Shown here piece by piece: positions 36,403-43,742 of a DNA stretch of 64,000 bases (position 1 is the first letter of the stretch; every line of letters starts with the position of its first letter). Source of the DNA: a virus. The stretch spans positions 21,651 through 85,650 of the IMG/VR virus record IMGVR_UViG_3300025011_000030, one strand, 5' to 3'. The notes below the pieces were generated by a model. It saw only the letters and a program-made list of their open reading frames with translations. It did not search any database and was not told the origin of the DNA. Position numbers and translations under genes: made by a program.

Positions 36403-36735
36403 ATGGCAAGAACTGCATTGGCTGTACAATCCTGTGCCATCACAGGATTGCTCCCTTTATATACCGCTGCTAATGCCCTTGGGCATAGTGTAGCCAATAA
36501 CGGGGAAACTTTTCTTCATGTTAAAAATGGTGATGCTTCCGACATAACGGTAACGCTTGTCAGTATACCTGACCCGTGGGGACGGACTGGTGACAAAGTA
36601 ATTACCGTATCGGCTGCGAGCGAAAAGATGATAGGGCCTATACCGCCGTTACTATTTAATCAGGCAGACGGTACTGTTAATGTTGATTTTTCAGCTGTCA
36701 CCAGTGTAACTTTAACTGCTGTAAAGTTGAGGTAA
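36403..36735 (+). CDS. Tail-associated small beta-rich protein
   Basis: NNGETFLHVKNG..GPIPPLLFNQADG. Confidence 0.55.
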   Translation: MARTALAVQSCAITGLLPLYTAANALGHSVANNGETFLHVKNGDASDITVTLVSIPDPWGRTGDKVITVSAASEKMIGPIPPLLFNQADGTVNVDFSAVTSVTLTAVKLR

Positions 36736-36739
36736 TGAT

Positions 36740-38617
36740 ATGAGCGATACATTATTAAGAGAGACGCAACCAAAGCCGGGACAGTTACCTGAAATTGTCC
36801 CGGGTCAATATTGGGATCATGATACGGAGCAATACGCAGCTATTAAAGGAGCTCACGGAGCTCCTAGAGTACTTTTATGGGACACGAATGGAGGCCCGTT
36901 ACTAACTACTGAGCAGCCTGGTATCGTTGACGTTACCGACCGAGCTGCCAGGGAGTTAGGTAAGATAAGTGCCGATAATCTTGATATTTCTTTGTCTGAC
37001 TTGCGGGATGCTATTGCCGGAGCAGGTGCAGCGACGAAAACTCTTGCCGATTTAGCCACTCTATTAACTTCGGTTAACGCGAAGGATTTCGCAAGTCAAA
37101 CCACGTTAGCTGCTATTTTAGGTAAGCTTATCTCAGATCCCTCAACATCGGCGAAACAGGACATATTGATTGCTAAAGATTTCGCAACCGAAACGACGCT
37201 TGCGGCAATTGGGTTGCTGATGACTGCCCTTACTGGCAAAGACTTTGCCACACAAACAACATTAGCAGAAATTTCAGCAAAGCTTTTAACTGCTCCTTCT
37301 ACAGAAGCAAAGCAAGATACACTCATCAGCCATGTTGACGGAGTAGAAACTGCACTAACTATATTAAACGCTAAGGATTTCGCCACACAAACGACCCTTG
37401 CAGCAGTATTAGCAAAGATCATTGCAGCACCGGCGACTGAGGCTAAACAGGATACTTTAAATGCGAAAGACTTTGCAACACAGGCTACATTAGCGGCAGT
37501 CTTAGCGAAAATTATAGCCGCCCCAGCTACAGAAGCAAAACAGGATATTCTAAACGCTAAAGATTTTGCTACGCAGACAACATTGGTCGCTATTCTAAAT
37601 AAGATTATAGAGGCACCTGCTACGGAGGCAACGTTAGCATCCGTGCAAGCCACATTAGCACAAGGCGGTATCCCGGCGACAACGCTGGAAACTACACACC
37701 AAAACGCTGCAACGACAAACGGCAATGGTACTGCCGCAACTGTAAGCGGGTATGGGCCAATCGCTTTCCAAATTACCGGAACCCCTGATGGTGCAACAAT
37801 AACTTGGGAAGGTTCTGTGGACGGTACAAATTATACGGCTTTTAGTGCCACGAAAACTGATACAGGTGCGGCAGCGACCACGGCAACTGCCACAGGAATT
37901 TATTCTGCCAACGTATCCGGCTATAAATCCGTGAGGGCGGTAATTTCTACAGCAGGGGCAAGTACGAGTCTAACTGTCAAATCTCTTGCCGTGGGTGTTG
38001 CTAGACCTCTAACTGCCGATGTGATAACAGTCGGTAAAGCCGCCGATAATGCCGCTGTGAGTGGTAATCCTATTCTTTTGGCAGGTAGATATAGCACAAC
38101 CCCAGCAACGAGGGATAACGGCGATGTTGTGACATTAGAAACTGACGCTACTGGTAGTTTACTTACCAAGCTAACTGGTAGTAAAGCTCTGGTAAGAGTT
38201 ATAATGGCAGACTCAACAGTCACCTTGGGAACGTCACAAAGTGAAATAATTAGTATAACTCCAACGGCTGGGTATAAAGCGAAAGTAATTAATATGTTTA
38301 TATATAGCCCAATCCCTACGGGTGGCACTACCGGTACACATGAATTTAACTGTCATTTCGGATCATCAGTAAACCAGAGAGCGTTTAATATTAAAACAGC
38401 GTATAATAAAGAGCTACTTATATCAGGTAATGCGCCATCCTCGACGGTAGATACTAAAACACCAAACAATGACGCTATTATTAATTCAAATATACAAAAA
38501 ATAGAATTTACCGTAGCTGAACCGTTAAAAATACAATATAAAAACGACACTGGTGCAACACAAACATTTTCCCGGAACATCAGATTAGTTGTAATTGAGG
38601 AGGCAATAATAGCATGA
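36740..38617 (+). CDS. Tail-associated fibre/decoration-like protein with KDFATQTTL repeats and a distinct AT-rich C-terminal domain after 'KLTGS'
   Basis: Seven AKDFA(T/S)Q(T/A)TL-like repeats; base composition changes after ~38180. Confidence 0.65.
   Translation: MSDTLLRETQPKPGQLPEIVPGQYWDHDTEQYAAIKGAHGAPRVLLWDTNGGPLLTTEQPGIVDVTDRAARELGKISADNLDISLSDLRDAIAGAGAATKTLADLATLLTSVNAKDFASQTTLAAILGKLISDPSTSAKQDILIAKDFATETTLAAIGLLMTALTGKDFATQTTLAEISAKLLTAPSTEAKQDTLISHVDGVETALTILNAKDFATQTTLAAVLAKIIAAPATEAKQDTLNAKDFATQATLAAVLAKIIAAPATEAKQDILNAKDFATQTTLVAILNKIIEAPATEATLASVQATLAQGGIPATTLETTHQNAATTNGNGTAATVSGYGPIAFQITGTPDGATITWEGSVDGTNYTAFSATKTDTGAAATTATATGIYSANVSGYKSVRAVISTAGASTSLTVKSLAVGVARPLTADVITVGKAADNAAVSGNPILLAGRYSTTPATRDNGDVVTLETDATGSLLTKLTGSKALVRVIMADSTVTLGTSQSEIISITPTAGYKAKVINMFIYSPIPTGGTTGTHEFNCHFGSSVNQRAFNIKTAYNKELLISGNAPSSTVDTKTPNNDAIINSNIQKIEFTVAEPLKIQYKNDTGATQTFSRNIRLVVIEEAIIA
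37078..37640 (+). repeat. Degenerate coding tandem repeats (NAKDFATQTTLAAVLAKIIAAPATEAKQD)
   Basis: Visible in the translation and the DNA. Confidence 0.85.
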
Positions 38618-38721
38618 ATATAGGAGACCGTTTTGAGGTTGAAAATGAACAAATGCAAATAGAAATATATGAAGTAATTGAAATTCGTGATGGAGTTATA
38701 ATTTCGAGAAAGGTATCGTAA
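38614..38721 (+). CDS. 35-aa ORF translationally coupled (ATGA) to the upstream gene
   Basis: GAGGAGG RBS; MNIGDRFEVENEQMQIEIYEVIEIRDGVIISRKVS. Confidence 0.6.
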   Translation: MNIGDRFEVENEQMQIEIYEVIEIRDGVIISRKVS

Positions 38722-38723
38722 TT

Positions 38724-38817
38724 TAACCAACTAACGAAGGTGCTGCTGTTAGTTGGTTAGTTGACATTAGGTGAACTTAAAATACCTCCAGCTATTATTT
38801 ATACATTAGCTGGAGGT
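38724..38817. promoter_or_regulatory. Two inverted repeats upstream of the recombinase; the second sequesters its RBS
   Basis: TAACCAACTAAC-N12-GTTAGTTGGTTA (38724-38759); ACCTCCAGCTA-N12-TAGCTGGAGGT (38784-38817). Confidence 0.75.
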
Positions 38818-38824
38818 GATTATT

Positions 38825-39667
38825 TTGTTATTAACCGAATCTTACAAATTATACGATGCTGACAAACGGTTACTTGGTTATTCGCCACATACATTAACAG
38901 CTTACGGGTTACAAATAAAACTACTTATTCGGGATATAGGGGATGTTGAAATTTCAACTGTTACCTACTTACAACTGAAGGAATATTTGATTAAACAAGA
39001 GCATCTTAAGCCGGCTTCAGTTGGTCACCGAATAAGGTTCATTAGATCGTTTTTCAGATATCTGCACGAAGAAGGATTCATGGAACGAAATATTTCGGCC
39101 AAACTTAGGGAACCCAAACAAGGTACTAGGGTTCCAAAGTTTTTAAACGAAGAAGAAGTTGAATTGTTAAGGGATAGCTGTAATACTTTACTTGAAAAGT
39201 CTCTCACTGAATTTTTCTATGCCACAGGATGTAGGATTGGTGAAGTAGCAGGTCTCAACCGAAAGGATATTGATTGGGACTCCCGGTCGGCTATGGTTAT
39301 TGGTAAAGGTGACAAACAACGGGAAGTGTACTTTACTGTCAAGTGCCGAGTATGGTTACAGAAGTATTTACAAAGTCGAACCGATGATTGCGAAGCTTTG
39401 TTTGTTACCGTGCGAAAACCTATTCGCAGAATGTCTATAGCTAGGATTAGAGAAGTCATAAAAGCTGTTGCCCAACATTCTGAAGTTGAGACTAATGTTT
39501 ATCCTCATCGGTGGCGACACACTACAGCCACTGTTATGGTTAACAATGGAGCTCCTATTGAAGTAATACAGTCTAACTTGGGTCACGCTAGACCAACTAC
39601 TACAATGATATATGCGCACTTATCTGGCGAACGTCGCCGTCAAGAGTACAACAGGTATTTTAGGTAA
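38825..39667 (+). CDS. XerC/D-like tyrosine recombinase inside the tail operon
   Basis: TGCRIGE (R), GKGDK (K), HRWRH (HxxR), LGH, TTMIY (Y); TTG start after GGAGG. Confidence 0.95.
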   Translation: MLLTESYKLYDADKRLLGYSPHTLTAYGLQIKLLIRDIGDVEISTVTYLQLKEYLIKQEHLKPASVGHRIRFIRSFFRYLHEEGFMERNISAKLREPKQGTRVPKFLNEEEVELLRDSCNTLLEKSLTEFFYATGCRIGEVAGLNRKDIDWDSRSAMVIGKGDKQREVYFTVKCRVWLQKYLQSRTDDCEALFVTVRKPIRRMSIARIREVIKAVAQHSEVETNVYPHRWRHTTATVMVNNGAPIEVIQSNLGHARPTTTMIYAHLSGERRRQEYNRYFR

Positions 39668-39692: not shown

Positions 39693-40112
39693 ATGATTTG
39701 TGAAACGAACAATACCGTTGAAGGTAAAATTGAATCCATAAAAACCCGCACATCCGATCAAAAAATGACCCGTGAGGGTGTACCAGTCAGTATCGGTGGT
39801 CAGGTATTCGAAATTAAGCCGTTGGTACGCAAGCAGGCTCGGGCTTTTCGTAGAAAATGGGCTGAAATGACAGGGAATTTTATTGGTCTGCAAGATGTAC
39901 AGGTAGAATCACCTGCCGAAGCTATCGCTGCCGCGTTCGATAAGCTAGACAGTGCTGAACCCTTACAACTAGAAACCATTGCATTGGCTATTCCAGAACT
40001 GGTAGGCAAAGAGGACTGGATTGACGATAACGCTACGAATGAGGAATTAGCTGAGGCAATGGTTTTAGCCTTACATATGAACGGCCTGGGAAACCCTACG
40101 AACCCTCGGTAG
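39693..40112 (+). CDS. Tail assembly chaperone (G-like)
   Basis: Upstream of the tape measure gene; ends just after a slippery site. Confidence 0.8.
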   Translation: MICETNNTVEGKIESIKTRTSDQKMTREGVPVSIGGQVFEIKPLVRKQARAFRRKWAEMTGNFIGLQDVQVESPAEAIAAAFDKLDSAEPLQLETIALAIPELVGKEDWIDDNATNEELAEAMVLALHMNGLGNPTNPR

Positions 40113-40390
40113 AGGGGGAGCAAGTAACTCTTGCAAATGTATACGAAGGTTTTATGACAGCCTTCCCATCGTATACGGTGGAAAAGATAGAAACTGAGCT
40201 TACCGACGAACAAATGACTTTGCTTGTTGAGAGTAGACTAAACAGGGTACAGGGAACCTCCGGTGATACTACGGAAGATCTGGCACTTAATGCTCTTGAT
40301 AGTAAGGGCAAGGTAACACGAATGAACATAGAGGATATGGAAAATATGCCGGGATTTGCGGTTGAAAAGGTGGTGGTGCATCGTGGCTAG
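40088..40390 (+). CDS. -1 frameshift extension (GT-like chaperone)
   Basis: G GGA AAC heptamer at 40088-40094; the -1 frame is open to 40390; CCCTC-GGTA-GAGGG hairpin follows. Confidence 0.85.
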   Translation, partial: GKPYEPSVEGEQVTLANVYEGFMTAFPSYTVEKIETELTDEQMTLLVESRLNRVQGTSGDTTEDLALNALDSKGKVTRMNIEDMENMPGFAVEKVVVHRG

Positions 40391-43300
40391 TGCAGCTGAT
40401 TTACTTATTAGGATCGTGGGTGATTCAAGAAACGCTGTTGGTGCTTTTTTAGGTTTACGTCAGGAAAGTACAAATACTATGGCAGCAGTTAGAAACGCTG
40501 TGCGAGGTGCTACTAACCAACTTAATACTGATGCTAACGGGGTTAGGCAATCACTCAGTCGAATGTTTAACGATGTAAGCGCCGATCAACTTATCTCTCA
40601 ACTCAGACAAGGTGGTCAGGCTGGTGACGCGGCCGCACAAGAAATTATTCAGTCACTCAATTCTATTCAAAGTGAGACTGACCGCACTGCTGCCGGTATG
40701 GCTATATTTGGTGAATCTTGGAGAGATGTACAGCAACAAGCAGGTCAGGCAGCCGACAGTATGCGCAATTCGTTGTCAGATTTATCCAGAAGAGCTGAAA
40801 CCGAGTCGGAACAGATGCGACAGGCCCTGTCGGGCATATTCGATAATGTGACTGCTGATAATTTAGTTCGCGAGTTAAGGGCCGGAGGTGCCGCCGGTGA
40901 GCGAGCTGCTCGGGAAATATCAGCAGCTCTGGCACAGGTGAATGACGACGTTGACCGTAATCGCCGAGGACTTGTTATTTTCGGTGCGTCCTGGCGGGAT
41001 GTTTCGCAGGATGCCCGTCGTTCTCAGGATGATGCTCAAGACGAACTCCGAGATACTGAAAATCTTTTAGACAGAGCGAAAAGAGCTGCTGTAGGATTGG
41101 CAGGTGCCTTTGCAGGGATACAGATCGCTGGTGTTATGGATGATGCGGCTGCCAGTGCCGGTCATTTGCGAGCAATGCTTGGGTTAGCGAAGGAAGAAGC
41201 AGAGGAGTTCACAAAAATATCTCGTGAAGTATACGGAGGTAACTTTAGCGAGAGTATGCGCGAAGCAAGCGAGGCAACTGTTAGAACCCACCAGTCGCTT
41301 GGTTTAGTGGGTGAAAGTCTTAAACAACAGACCCAAAATGTTTTAATGCTGAATACTGTTTTCGGTGAACTTGGTGCAGACACTCAAACTAATCTTGGAG
41401 CAATAAGGTCAATGACTAAGGCTTGGGAAATGGATTCCAGTCAAGCAACTGACCTTATTTCTAAAGGTTTGCAGGGAGTGGCCGGTAGTGCCGGTGATCT
41501 TTTAGATACTTTAACCGAATACCCAGCTCACTTTAAAGCCCTTGGATTAAACTCACAGGACGCTTTGAAATGGCTTAATATTGGCATGGAAAACGGTGCG
41601 ATGAATACGGATATACTAGCCGATGCCGTAAAAGAGTTTGGGATTAGGGTTAAGACTGAAGGGGAACTTGTAAAAAAAGTAAGTAAAGAAGATGAAGAAG
41701 CATTGAAAGGTATGGCTGATGCCGCTAAAGCTTCTTTTGATAGTACCAATGAATCGGCTAAAGACTCTTATGAGAAAACAAAAGAAGCTTCTACGGAAGC
41801 TTATGAGTCAGCTAAGGATTTAATAGACAAGAGTATTGAACTTACTAAAAATGAGCACGACGAAAAGGTACAAGCGGCTAAGGATTATAAGGATAAACAG
41901 AAAGAATATTATGACGAAATACTCCAAAAAGCGAAGGACAATTATACCAAAATAGTTGAGGCCGCCGAACTGGCTAGAGACGGAGACCTTGCAGCCCTAC
42001 AAGGTCAACTTGACGAAATTGACAAGCAGGAAGAACAACGACAAAGGGATGCTGAGCAGAAAAGTTTGCAGCAGGCTATTAATCAGGCTAAGGACGCTGA
42101 GGCTAGATCTGCGGCAAAAGCTAGACTCGCTGACTGGGTACGAAAGCAAGAAGTAAATGCAAGTAAGGAAAGTATACGTGAACAAATGCAAAAGGTCAGG
42201 GATTCATACGAGCTGAAGAAAAAACAAGCTGAAGAAAACCTGACTAAGTCCGAAAAAACTTACCAGTTAGATACAAAAAATCTTGAAGTTGAAACAAATA
42301 ACAAACTTAGAATAATTGAAAAATCCTATAAAGAACAAGAAATTAAGGCTAAAGAAAATTTAGCTAGTATTAAGCAAACGTATGAAGATCAACAAGCAAA
42401 AGCTAAAGAAACATATGACTCCATAACTACCTATGCGAGCCAGCGATACGAGGCTGAGGAAGCGAACATAGTAAAACTTCAAACTAGCCTGGAAGTAGTT
42501 ACCGACACAAATCCAGCTCGTCAAGCGATACGGGAATTATTTTCTCCGGAAGAAGCAGAGAGACTGATATCCGATTTTGACAAGGGTGGCGAAGCTGGGA
42601 GAGACGCTTTTTATAAGGTTCTTGAAGCCTTAAACCAGGTACAAGATCCGGCCCAACGGTATAATATGGCGGTTGCCTTAATGGGTACACAGGCCGAAGA
42701 TTTGACTGCCGACAAACTGCTGCCCATGATTGATGCTTTTGTAAGTGCTAAGGATACAACTATTGAAACCGCGGGTGCAACCAATTCACTGAATGAGGAG
42801 TATTCTGGATTCAGTAATACCCTTCAGGGTCTGAAAAAGTCTATTGAAGCTTCTGCTATCGGTACGTTGGGTGATATTATAAGCCCGGTTATTGATAGTG
42901 CCGGGTCATTAGGACTTGCTATGTTAGGACTTGGGCCTATTTTTAGTAAACTGAAAGAATGGAAGATTGCTGATGCAATTGTTACAGGAGCCTCTACAGT
43001 CGCCTATTGGGCAAGTGTTGCTGCTATGGTAGCTATGGACTTAGCGAGTAAGGCATTTGGCGTCACTATGGCAGTTTTAACGTCACCTGTGACCGCGGTG
43101 ATTGCGTTGGTAGCAGCGTTGGCTGCAGGGGCTTATTTAATTTATACAAATTGGCAAACGATTGAACAATTTTTTTCTGACATGTGGAATGGTATAAAAA
43201 CCAACAGCGAAACAGCTATTGGTTATATAAAATCCGGTTGGGAAGGTTTTAAAGTATTTTTCGTTGGTTTATGGAGCAATATTTGGAGTCCGGTTAAAGG

Positions 43301-43742
43301 ATTTTTAAACATGATGATTGGCGGGGTAAATTCGTTAATCGGTGGTCTAAACAAACTGCAGGTTACAGTCCCTGACTGGGTTCCCGGTGTTGGCGGTAAC
43401 AGATGGGGAATCAACATTTCAAGAATACCGATGTTAGCTGCCGGAGGTGAAATAATTAATTCCGGTCTTGCTATTGTTGGGGAAAAAGGGCCTGAATTAG
43501 CTTATTTCGGTGCGGGTGCAGGTGTTGTTTCAAATCGGGATACTATTGATATGCTTAAACAGTCGTCGCAAACTGTTAATCATACCGGCACGATTACCGT
43601 TAAAGGTGTTAATGATCGTGGTCAGCTTATAGGAGTTATTGATTTACTTGTTTCGGATAACAGGGAATTAACCCGTCTCGAACGTGCAATGAAGCCGATT
43701 AGGTCAAATGAAAAGGGAAGGACAGGTGGTTACAGTGGCTAA
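40383..43742 (+). CDS. Tail tape measure protein
   Basis: ~1120 aa, helical; DLLDTLTEY, ADAVKEFGIR, Trp/Phe repeats, LAAGG..VGEKGPE. Confidence 0.92.
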   Translation: MASAADLLIRIVGDSRNAVGAFLGLRQESTNTMAAVRNAVRGATNQLNTDANGVRQSLSRMFNDVSADQLISQLRQGGQAGDAAAQEIIQSLNSIQSETDRTAAGMAIFGESWRDVQQQAGQAADSMRNSLSDLSRRAETESEQMRQALSGIFDNVTADNLVRELRAGGAAGERAAREISAALAQVNDDVDRNRRGLVIFGASWRDVSQDARRSQDDAQDELRDTENLLDRAKRAAVGLAGAFAGIQIAGVMDDAAASAGHLRAMLGLAKEEAEEFTKISREVYGGNFSESMREASEATVRTHQSLGLVGESLKQQTQNVLMLNTVFGELGADTQTNLGAIRSMTKAWEMDSSQATDLISKGLQGVAGSAGDLLDTLTEYPAHFKALGLNSQDALKWLNIGMENGAMNTDILADAVKEFGIRVKTEGELVKKVSKEDEEALKGMADAAKASFDSTNESAKDSYEKTKEASTEAYESAKDLIDKSIELTKNEHDEKVQAAKDYKDKQKEYYDEILQKAKDNYTKIVEAAELARDGDLAALQGQLDEIDKQEEQRQRDAEQKSLQQAINQAKDAEARSAAKARLADWVRKQEVNASKESIREQMQKVRDSYELKKKQAEENLTKSEKTYQLDTKNLEVETNNKLRIIEKSYKEQEIKAKENLASIKQTYEDQQAKAKETYDSITTYASQRYEAEEANIVKLQTSLEVVTDTNPARQAIRELFSPEEAERLISDFDKGGEAGRDAFYKVLEALNQVQDPAQRYNMAVALMGTQAEDLTADKLLPMIDAFVSAKDTTIETAGATNSLNEEYSGFSNTLQGLKKSIEASAIGTLGDIISPVIDSAGSLGLAMLGLGPIFSKLKEWKIADAIVTGASTVAYWASVAAMVAMDLASKAFGVTMAVLTSPVTAVIALVAALAAGAYLIYTNWQTIEQFFSDMWNGIKTNSETAIGYIKSGWEGFKVFFVGLWSNIWSPVKGFLNMMIGGVNSLIGGLNKLQVTVPDWVPGVGGNRWGINISRIPMLAAGGEIINSGLAIVGEKGPELAYFGAGAGVVSNRDTIDMLKQSSQTVNHTGTITVKGVNDRGQLIGVIDLLVSDNRELTRLERAMKPIRSNEKGRTGGYSG

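Follow-up and report, generated by a model that had tools for sequence, protein, structure and literature searches.

Alternative fibre-tip cassettes between two short conserved DNA sites, and an adjoining Xer-type recombinase as a candidate for their exchange, in phages of groundwater and sediment metagenomes

Introduction

The precise exchange of phage receptor-binding modules is an old open question, and the usual answers invoke chance homologous or illegitimate recombination followed by selection. In the Rci shufflon of R64, the Rin shufflon of Bifidobacterium prophages (PMC6109161) and the Gin/Cin/Min switches, an adhesin or fibre gene that encodes one constant N-terminus and several alternative C-termini is followed directly by the gene of a recombinase, and resident segments are inverted between inverted repeats within one genome. 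In T4-type phages, short conserved stem-loop sequences flank variable genes at swap points; these PeSLs are described as units of a promoter and a stem-loop that serve general recombination (PMC2839356). Recombinases of unexplained function are reported from within the tail modules of Tyroviruses, Perkons and the Lactococcus 949 group (PMC9703825; PMC13245101). Here we analysed a 64,000-nucleotide stretch of phage DNA (the window; bases 21651–85650 of the 85,650-bp contig IMGVR_UViG_3300025011_000030), in which a fibre gene of 625 amino acids (aa; 36740–38617, plus strand) is followed by a small open reading frame (ORF) and by the gene of an Xer-type tyrosine recombinase. The tip domain of the fibre and the small ORF form a cassette which very probably has exact borders at two short DNA sites, a junction site (J) within the fibre reading frame and an end site (E) in front of the recombinase gene. 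As in the shufflons, the recombinase follows the fibre gene directly; unlike in the shufflons, the locus has neither alternative segments nor flanking inverted repeats, and the alternatives are found in other phages. Fibre-tip cassettes delimited by sites of this kind were not described in any paper that our literature search returned.

Results

The Tip Domain and Its Small ORF Form a Cassette Between J and E

The cassette comprises positions 38168–38759 and consists of the tip domain and its cognate small ORF. At the left border, J (38169–38181, plus strand, AGCTAACTGGTAG; consensus AACTAACTGGTAG) lies in frame within the codons AAG CTA ACT GGT AGT (38168–38182), which encode K-L-T-G-S. The right border, E (38724–38759, no strand assigned), is formed by the perfect inverted arms TAACCAACTAAC and GTTAGTTGGTTA around GAAGGTGCTGCT. 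A preliminary description of the locus, made from the sequence alone, had placed at K-L-T-G-S the change from a GC-richer stalk to an AT-rich C-terminal domain that is followed by a coupled ORF. This was borne out: the GC content drops from ~0.47 to 0.33–0.38 near 38200 and stays low until ~39100, and the 35-aa ORF (38614–38721, plus strand), whose ATG overlaps the stop codon of the fibre gene, is translationally coupled to it and forms part of the cassette.

In about 20 neighbouring phages, the space between J and E was found to hold no fewer than 13 unrelated tip families, together with at least 12 families of small ORFs, a family being a group unconnected to the others by BLASTP. Each tip family has its own small-ORF family and the two move as a pair, as tip B does with its ORF of ~70 aa. 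When tips of the same family were compared between different phages, the 150 nt before J were at background similarity and identity was ~75–90% from J on, the similarity starting within a few bases of J and stopping at E. The pairs L192/L205 and L189/L202, for example, have unrelated shafts and ~90% identity beginning at J. The cassettes end 3–13 nt ahead of E or within E, and no similarity was seen beyond E. Loci L193 and L195/L197 have backbones that are 88–89% identical and cassettes that differ, and here homology resumes at the first base of E.

The window fibre is itself a mosaic. The proteins of L003, L004 and L005 are 73–86% identical to approximately residues 182–481, this identity ends directly after LLTK[LV][TI]GS, and their N- and C-termini are unrelated to those of the window fibre, which agrees with the LTGS breakpoint proposed in the preliminary description and places the left border exactly at the in-frame [KQ]LTG[SR]. 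The fibre gene sits among tail genes in the window phage and adjoins head genes in L003–L005, as judged by ORF sizes only. Three further relatives, L035, L036 and L037, have the whole gene order of the window phage at 65–88% aa identity. DNA homology to them ends in the fibre anchor (36823–37015), resumes at codon 4 of the recombinase gene (38825) and from there continues unbroken into the following genes. Their variable slots contain another tip and a 68-aa ORF (L035), a different tip with ORFs of 61 and 264 aa (L036), and a short tip with a polysaccharide deacetylase (L037).

The 264-aa ORF of L036 (L036:4992–5786, plus strand) stands between E and the intact recombinase gene and combines a Cys-rich N-terminal part, HNH-like by eye, with a decayed recombinase fragment that is 35% identical to residues 113–224 of the window enzyme (E-value 2e-12) and is without the catalytic C-terminus. 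Two or three J/E cassettes were also observed at separate loci of single contigs, namely in L210 (3300001242_000003), where two cassette loci are 8.6 kb apart, and in L157/L205 (3300025009_000137), where ~220 bp behind E are duplicated at 94% identity.

The Junction Site J Is Conserved at the Codon Level

J opens 20 dereplicated cassettes, which represent at least 13 tip families; it reads xAA CTA ACT GGT AGT across them and encodes [KQ]LTG[SR]. The codon GGT and the A at the third position of the Leu codon are invariant (20/20 each) and ACT is present in 18/20; CTA accounts for only 11% of the Leu codons of the window phage. The changes that occur within J are mostly non-synonymous (L to I or V, T to I or S, S to R or N), and the first codon specifies K, Q, R or E. 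This sample was biased to the motif by the search pattern, yet the site was present in nearly all cassettes. In the tip model, KLTGSK is a lower-confidence linker ahead of the first strand, so that tip folding leaves its conservation unexplained. Judged by this codon pattern, J is conserved as a DNA site. Its left half, AACTAAC, is also the word contained in the arms of E.

The End Site E Recurs Behind the Last ORF of Fibre Modules

The consensus of E is (CC)AACTAACG-AAGGTG-CGTTAGTT(GG), with inverted arms of 8–10 bp and a 6-bp centre; this dif-like palindrome matches Xer sites (11-6-11) in its geometry. In the window copy, perfect inverted arms of 11–12 bp enclose a 12-nt spacer, and this copy departs from the consensus by a 4-nt insertion in the centre (AAGGTGC-TGCT-GTTAG). 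The three copies of CAACTAAC noticed in the preliminary description are present at 38728 (plus strand), 38748 and 38756 (both minus strand); the first two lie within the inverted repeat, and they belong to a conserved site that is tied to the recombinase. Low-depth contigs of related phages (runs X2 and X5) differ from the window by small deletions in the region where the small ORF ends and E lies (window 38716–38747), and because one set of deletions totals 4 nt within the centre of E, the insertion of the window looks derived. The window copy of E may be impaired.

In L003, L004 and L037 the inverted repeat recurs with unrelated flanks, each time directly behind the ORF that closes the fibre module. 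A first, broader motif scan returned mostly chance or coding matches and was replaced by a tighter exact pattern, AACTAACGRANNTGCGTTAG, which was run on IMG/VR as a motif only and together with a reversed control. The pattern was found at 31 loci, ~26 of them from one group of groundwater and sediment metagenomes, and the reversed pattern at 11 loci scattered over other samples; there was no match to the E pattern in 401 Bacillota genomes. Across 32 instances, E starts 3–13 nt past the stop codon of the preceding ORF or overlaps it. This ORF usually has 35–79 aa, and some of the small ORFs take their stop codon from the TAA of E. J (AACTAACTGGTAG, at most two mismatches) was located 0.5–2.2 kb upstream of E, on the same strand and in frame, in 24 of the 25 evaluable cases, the chance expectation being ~0.02 per locus by a rough estimate.

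A third near-copy of an E arm (GTTACTTGGTT, one mismatch) was observed at 38869–38879, inside the 5' coding region of the recombinase gene. It is the only further E-arm match with at most one mismatch in the 85-kb genome, with a roughly estimated and borderline p of ~0.01. The residues encoded there are not kept in relatives, and the near-copy was set aside.

An Xer-Type Recombinase Gene Follows E

The recombinase gene (38816–39667, plus strand, 283 aa) starts 57 nt downstream of E and ~200 bp from the fibre gene, with which it is co-oriented. The protein matched the Pfam family PF00589 (Phage_integrase) over residues 108–270 with 120 bits against a cut-off of 27.1 (E-value 1.2e-34), and a SAM-like N-terminal domain with a score of 23.6 against a cut-off of 22.3. 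It aligns over its full length with XerD (1a0p), and the motifs ATGcRigE, pHrwRHt, LGH and iYaH, the last containing the catalytic Tyr266 (39611–39613), are in register. The enzyme is intact, Xer-like and co-oriented within the tail operon, as had been described, and it does end with Y266-A-H-L-S-G (39611–39628). Its scores stayed below the NCBIfam equivalog cut-offs for XerA (192 against 220), XerC (187 against 335) and XerD (175 against 330); by these profiles it is Xer-like and not an orthologue of XerA, XerC or XerD. The IntI-type integrase models TIGR02249 and NF011946 were not reached either (83.7 bits against 265 and 45 against 435, respectively).

In the syntenic L035–L037 the recombinase is 77–78% identical at the aa level, and together with the unbroken downstream homology this indicates that it is conserved like the backbone, beside a hypervariable slot. 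A second perfect 11-bp inverted repeat (ACCTCCAGCTA, 12 nt, TAGCTGGAGGT; 38784–38817, plus strand) pairs the ribosome-binding site of the recombinase gene (GGAGGT), which suggests that this hairpin probably controls translation of the recombinase, and tightly; the repeat is not conserved in relatives, where divergent HTH regulators are found in its stead.

A recombinase 56–78% identical to that of the window follows E in 10 of the 32 instances, which represent 5–6 distinct phages with several backbones, and starts 96–1251 nt downstream of E on the same strand. Starting from the enzyme, all eight distinct loci with a recombinase at least 64% identical (the window, L035, L036, L037/L214, L022/L023, L100, L157 and L194) have E 88–1252 nt upstream of it, matched with at most 4 edits as compared with 6–8 edits in reversed-sequence controls. 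E is also present in L088, whose recombinase is 57% identical, and was not found with recombinase homologs of 51% identity or less.

In L100, L214 and L188, E is separated from the recombinase gene by a divergent Cro/C1-type regulator, and palindromic operator-like repeats are seen in this interval in L100 and L157; the small protein of L157 is RHH-like by eye and had no Pfam match. Two loci that are 97% identical downstream differ at this place: L198 has E, a regulator and the recombinase, whereas L213 has E and a terminator, and homology resumes 4 nt after the recombinase stop codon. The recombinase unit itself is thus present or absent beside E.

In phiCp-D, TPELB_ph1, a Fictibacillus prophage and several other cases, distant homologs (30–51% identity) have tail-fibre genes on one side and lysis genes on the other, and at least three phages with such a homolog have, in addition, a canonical or serine integrase. 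In L039 (Fictibacillus aquaticus contig 1, ~154.0 kb), L040 and L002, temperate Firmicutes phages that also possess a canonical tyrosine or a serine integrase, the Xer-like homolog is situated between tail-fibre and holin/lysin genes and represents a recurrent second recombinase.

Domain Structure of the Fibre Protein

The tip domain (K477–A625, 38168–38617, plus strand) was modelled by AlphaFold2 as a jelly-roll knob (pLDDT 95.2). Fold searches with the model returned only generic jelly-roll matches (Z 8–9), including PRD1 P5 and XepA; the model resembles the N-domain of the latter (6i56, Z 8.0). A word-indexed protein search with the tip returned only its own protein. The exhaustive search (phmmer, E-value at most 1e-3) gave the type-A tip family of 241 representatives, in all of which the domain is C-terminal. 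This domain of ~145 aa starts with [VQK]L[TS]G[SR]K and ends with R.IRL...EEAI[VI], to which the window tip conforms, and L157 has a member of the family inside a J/E cassette.

The N-terminal anchor (approximately residues 1–110, 36740–37069, plus strand) is the sole part of the fibre common to the syntenic clade L035–L037 (54–59% aa identity). It is followed by the shaft (37073–37642, plus strand), which consists of diverged 93-nt (31-aa) repeats of the type AKDFATQTTLAAVLAKIIAAPATEAKQDTL; such repeats occur also in L003–L005 and upstream of tips in unrelated proteins. The middle domain (approximately residues 302–476, 37643–38167, plus strand) is 73–86% identical in L003–L005. Residues 313–418 (37676–37993) gave a weak match, far under the cut-off, to the C-terminal part of PBSX XepA (NF047953, E-value 3.5e-5).

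Contigs covering the repeats and the middle domain (window 37387–38037) reach a depth of up to ~2300 as compared with ~80, and assemblies break there; this much higher depth indicates that far more abundant co-occurring phages share the shaft. One "skip" joint, from 36447 to 39152, was seen on a single contig (side 40) and is most simply explained by a related phage.

Genome Setting

The phage contig has a GC content of 40.4% and nearly every gene on one strand. Its record is classed as linear, yet it has a terminal direct overlap of 134 bp (1–134 and 85517–85650 of the 85,650-bp contig), from which we conclude that it is a circular assembly. DNA of this phage is present in groundwater and sediment metagenomes of two studies. 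A DNA search against isolated phages gave no match to the window phage, and the fibre anchor was likewise without a match among them.

Matches to PHROGs gave the order terminase small and large subunits, portal, protease, major head protein, tail completion protein, Ig-domain protein, a small tail protein, the 625-aa gene, the 35-aa ORF, the recombinase, two small ORFs, the tape-measure protein, more tail proteins and endolysin; past the endolysin, a helicase and DnaD-, DnaC- and DnaB-like replication proteins are encoded. The small protein directly upstream of the fibre (110 aa, 36403–36735, plus strand) belongs to the backbone, matches phrog_16194 "tail protein" (5.5e-11) and is 74–86% identical at the aa level in the syntenic relatives L006 and L035–L037. 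The two small ORFs of 139 and 78 aa (39693–40390, plus strand) ahead of the tape-measure gene (40356–43742) had no family match and are 69–87% identical at the aa level in the syntenic clade. The preliminary description had placed the recombinase between a tail-tube gene and tail-chaperone genes; both of these names come from position only. The recombinase is the sole tyrosine recombinase of the 85.6-kb genome. Repressor and excisionase, reported earlier as lacking nearby, had indeed no family match among the phage proteins scanned, nor had partition proteins.

Discussion

Does the Recombinase Exchange the Cassettes?

Direct observation covers the two sites J and E, the exact agreement of homology breakpoints with them, the variety of what the cassettes contain, and the association of E with one recombinase clade. 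From them we lean, by a small margin of confidence, towards the view that the neighbouring Xer-type recombinase acts on the J/E sites to exchange cassettes. The enzyme would bind the inverted AACTAACG arms of E and would catalyse site-specific crossovers between the E sites of co-infecting phage genomes (E x E) and perhaps also J x E; its action on E or J, the recombining partners and the positions of strand cutting are all presumptive. A phage community could in this manner share a pool of alternative fibre tips, each of which could be joined in frame to any shaft. The bolder proposal, a phage analogue of the integron in which fibre-tip cassettes would be excised, captured and exchanged by the recombinase through E and the in-frame half-site J, is offered tentatively and with considerably less confidence.

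Several observations weigh against exchange by the recombinase. J is not a palindrome, and J and E have only the word AACTAAC in common and no common central region, which makes a canonical two-strand J x E exchange doubtful. The 4-nt central insertion of the window E would be expected to impair pairing with a canonical E. L054 and L055, with a recombinase 57% identical, have no E, and in roughly two thirds of the loci with E the available sequence contains no recombinase. The block by which L198 and L213 differ ends at gene borders and not at J/E sites. No "empty" site was seen among the 32 instances of E, and in the assembled contigs of three runs, from which rare forms are dropped, cassette, E and recombinase were contiguous; neither a circle nor another recombination product was seen in assembled contigs.

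The main rival, which we consider possible but doubtful, is that J and E are conserved adaptors for general or microhomology recombination by host RecA or phage annealing proteins, and that the recombinase has another job, for instance the resolution of dimers or concatemers at E. The many E-bearing loci without the enzyme and the gene borders of the L198/L213 difference fit this explanation, as do further left breakpoints within shafts, upstream of J. PeSL-mediated shuffling without a dedicated recombinase is already on record (PMC2839356), and repeated recombination of whatever kind would homogenise J and E. However, at 13 and 22 bp the sites offer little length to homologous recombination, and this explanation accounts neither for a palindrome E that repeats the left half of J in its arms nor for the position of E just upstream of the recombinase in eight of eight close relatives.

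It is unlikely that E is instead a hairpin acting at the RNA level (in termination, processing or stability), that LTG[SR] is a structural joint and that the pattern is ordinary fibre mosaicism. E does always lie behind the last ORF of the module, with some small ORFs stopping at its TAA, L035, L037 and L054 have true terminators at the equivalent place, and LTGS/LSGR is conserved throughout the type-A tip family. Yet the stem of E is A+T-rich and usually without a T-run, and in L213 a canonical terminator follows 20 nt after E. A structural joint, in turn, is hard to reconcile with a J that is invariant at the codon level alongside aa variation and that opens at least 13 unrelated tip families, and an RNA element with the linkage of E to the recombinase.

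Still less probable is a lysogeny integrase with E as its attP and an incidental position in the tail operon, although the enzyme is the only one of its kind in the genome, adjoins E and, in some relatives, is separated from E by a divergent Cro/C1-type regulator. The genome has its own replisome and genes almost all on one strand, and the families of lysogeny and partition functions searched for are missing from the proteins scanned. Distant homologs occur in prophages with another, canonical integrase (L039, L040, TPELB_ph1), E is found in many phages without the recombinase gene, and it was not found in the 401 Bacillota genomes searched.

The mobile unit proposed in the preliminary description, composed of tip, small ORF and recombinase with att sites at LTGS and at the recombinase 3' end (~39620), is largely refuted and has very little probability left: the match between the junction and the 3' end is at chance level (an equal or better match to the junction is given by 42% of the other 51-nt windows for exact words and by 88% when one mismatch is allowed), no homology break and no E-like or J-like site was found at the 3' end, the right border being the palindrome after the small ORF, homology to L035–L037 is unbroken from recombinase codon 4 into the next genes and recombinase divergence is in step with the backbone, even though the L198/L213 block includes the recombinase and a decayed second copy sits in the variable slot of L036. 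What stands of this proposal is that the C-terminal domain and the small ORF are exchangeable; that the recombinase travels with them does not hold in L035–L037, with the qualification that it is present or absent beside E in the 97%-identical pair. An inversion switch was rejected, as no significant inverted repeats flank the fibre gene and the long ORFs on its minus strand are low-complexity translations without homologs.

Exchange by the recombinase has the merit of naming a candidate enzyme together with short, defined addresses in the DNA, one of which falls within a reading frame, and this makes the idea testable with oligonucleotides, purified protein and a Tyr266 mutant. If true, it would mean that unrelated phages draw receptor-binding tips from a common pool and fuse them in frame to their own shafts, a natural plug-in standard for joining tips to shafts, and it would account for fast host-range turnover in natural phage communities. 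It would also constitute a third recombinase-driven route of fibre diversification, beside invertases/shufflons and diversity-generating retroelements.

Comparison With Known Systems

Exchange by the recombinase, if it holds, would suggest a role for the unexplained recombinases within tail modules of large Firmicutes phages. The Tyrovirus gp50 type and similar recombinases (Thrax/Tsamsa, Perkons, Lactococcus 949 group; PMC9703825) share with the window locus an Xer-like recombinase between neck/tail and tape-measure genes and an adjoining 11-6-11 inverted repeat. In that case the putative site is downstream of the gene and no cassette borders were reported; the Tsamsa recombinases are distant from the window enzyme (34% over residues 160–267 and 23% over 72–163), and orthology to gp50/Tsamsa was not found. 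PeSL cassettes resemble the present ones in the conserved stem-loops at swap points, whereas in the present case E is devoid of a promoter, J forms part of a coding sequence and the sites are linked to a dedicated recombinase.

The pdif/dif modules of Acinetobacter plasmids and IMEX likewise have dif-like sites with 6-bp centres at module borders, and Xer-family enzymes have been implicated in them. The pdif modules have two full sites in inverted XerC/D-D/C order and depend on host XerCD, whereas the present cassettes have one full palindrome, E, and a half-site, J, in direct order, a phage-encoded enzyme and protein domains as cargo.

Integrons differ from the J/E locus in several respects. 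Their cassettes are promoterless whole genes, whereas those described here are in frame in a virion gene; attC is a folded site of 57–141 bp and E has only ~22–26 bp with a 6-bp centre; intI is divergent and carries the Pc promoter, and the recombinase gene here is downstream and co-oriented; and there is one cassette per locus in place of tandem arrays. The ends of integron attC sites read RYYYAAC / GTTRRRY, which the arm words of E, AACTAAC / GTTAGTT, resemble. As in integrons, the gene of an Xer-related tyrosine recombinase adjoins a recombination site, some site-bearing elements have no recombinase, as do CALINs, and many unrelated cassettes each close with the same short imperfect palindrome.

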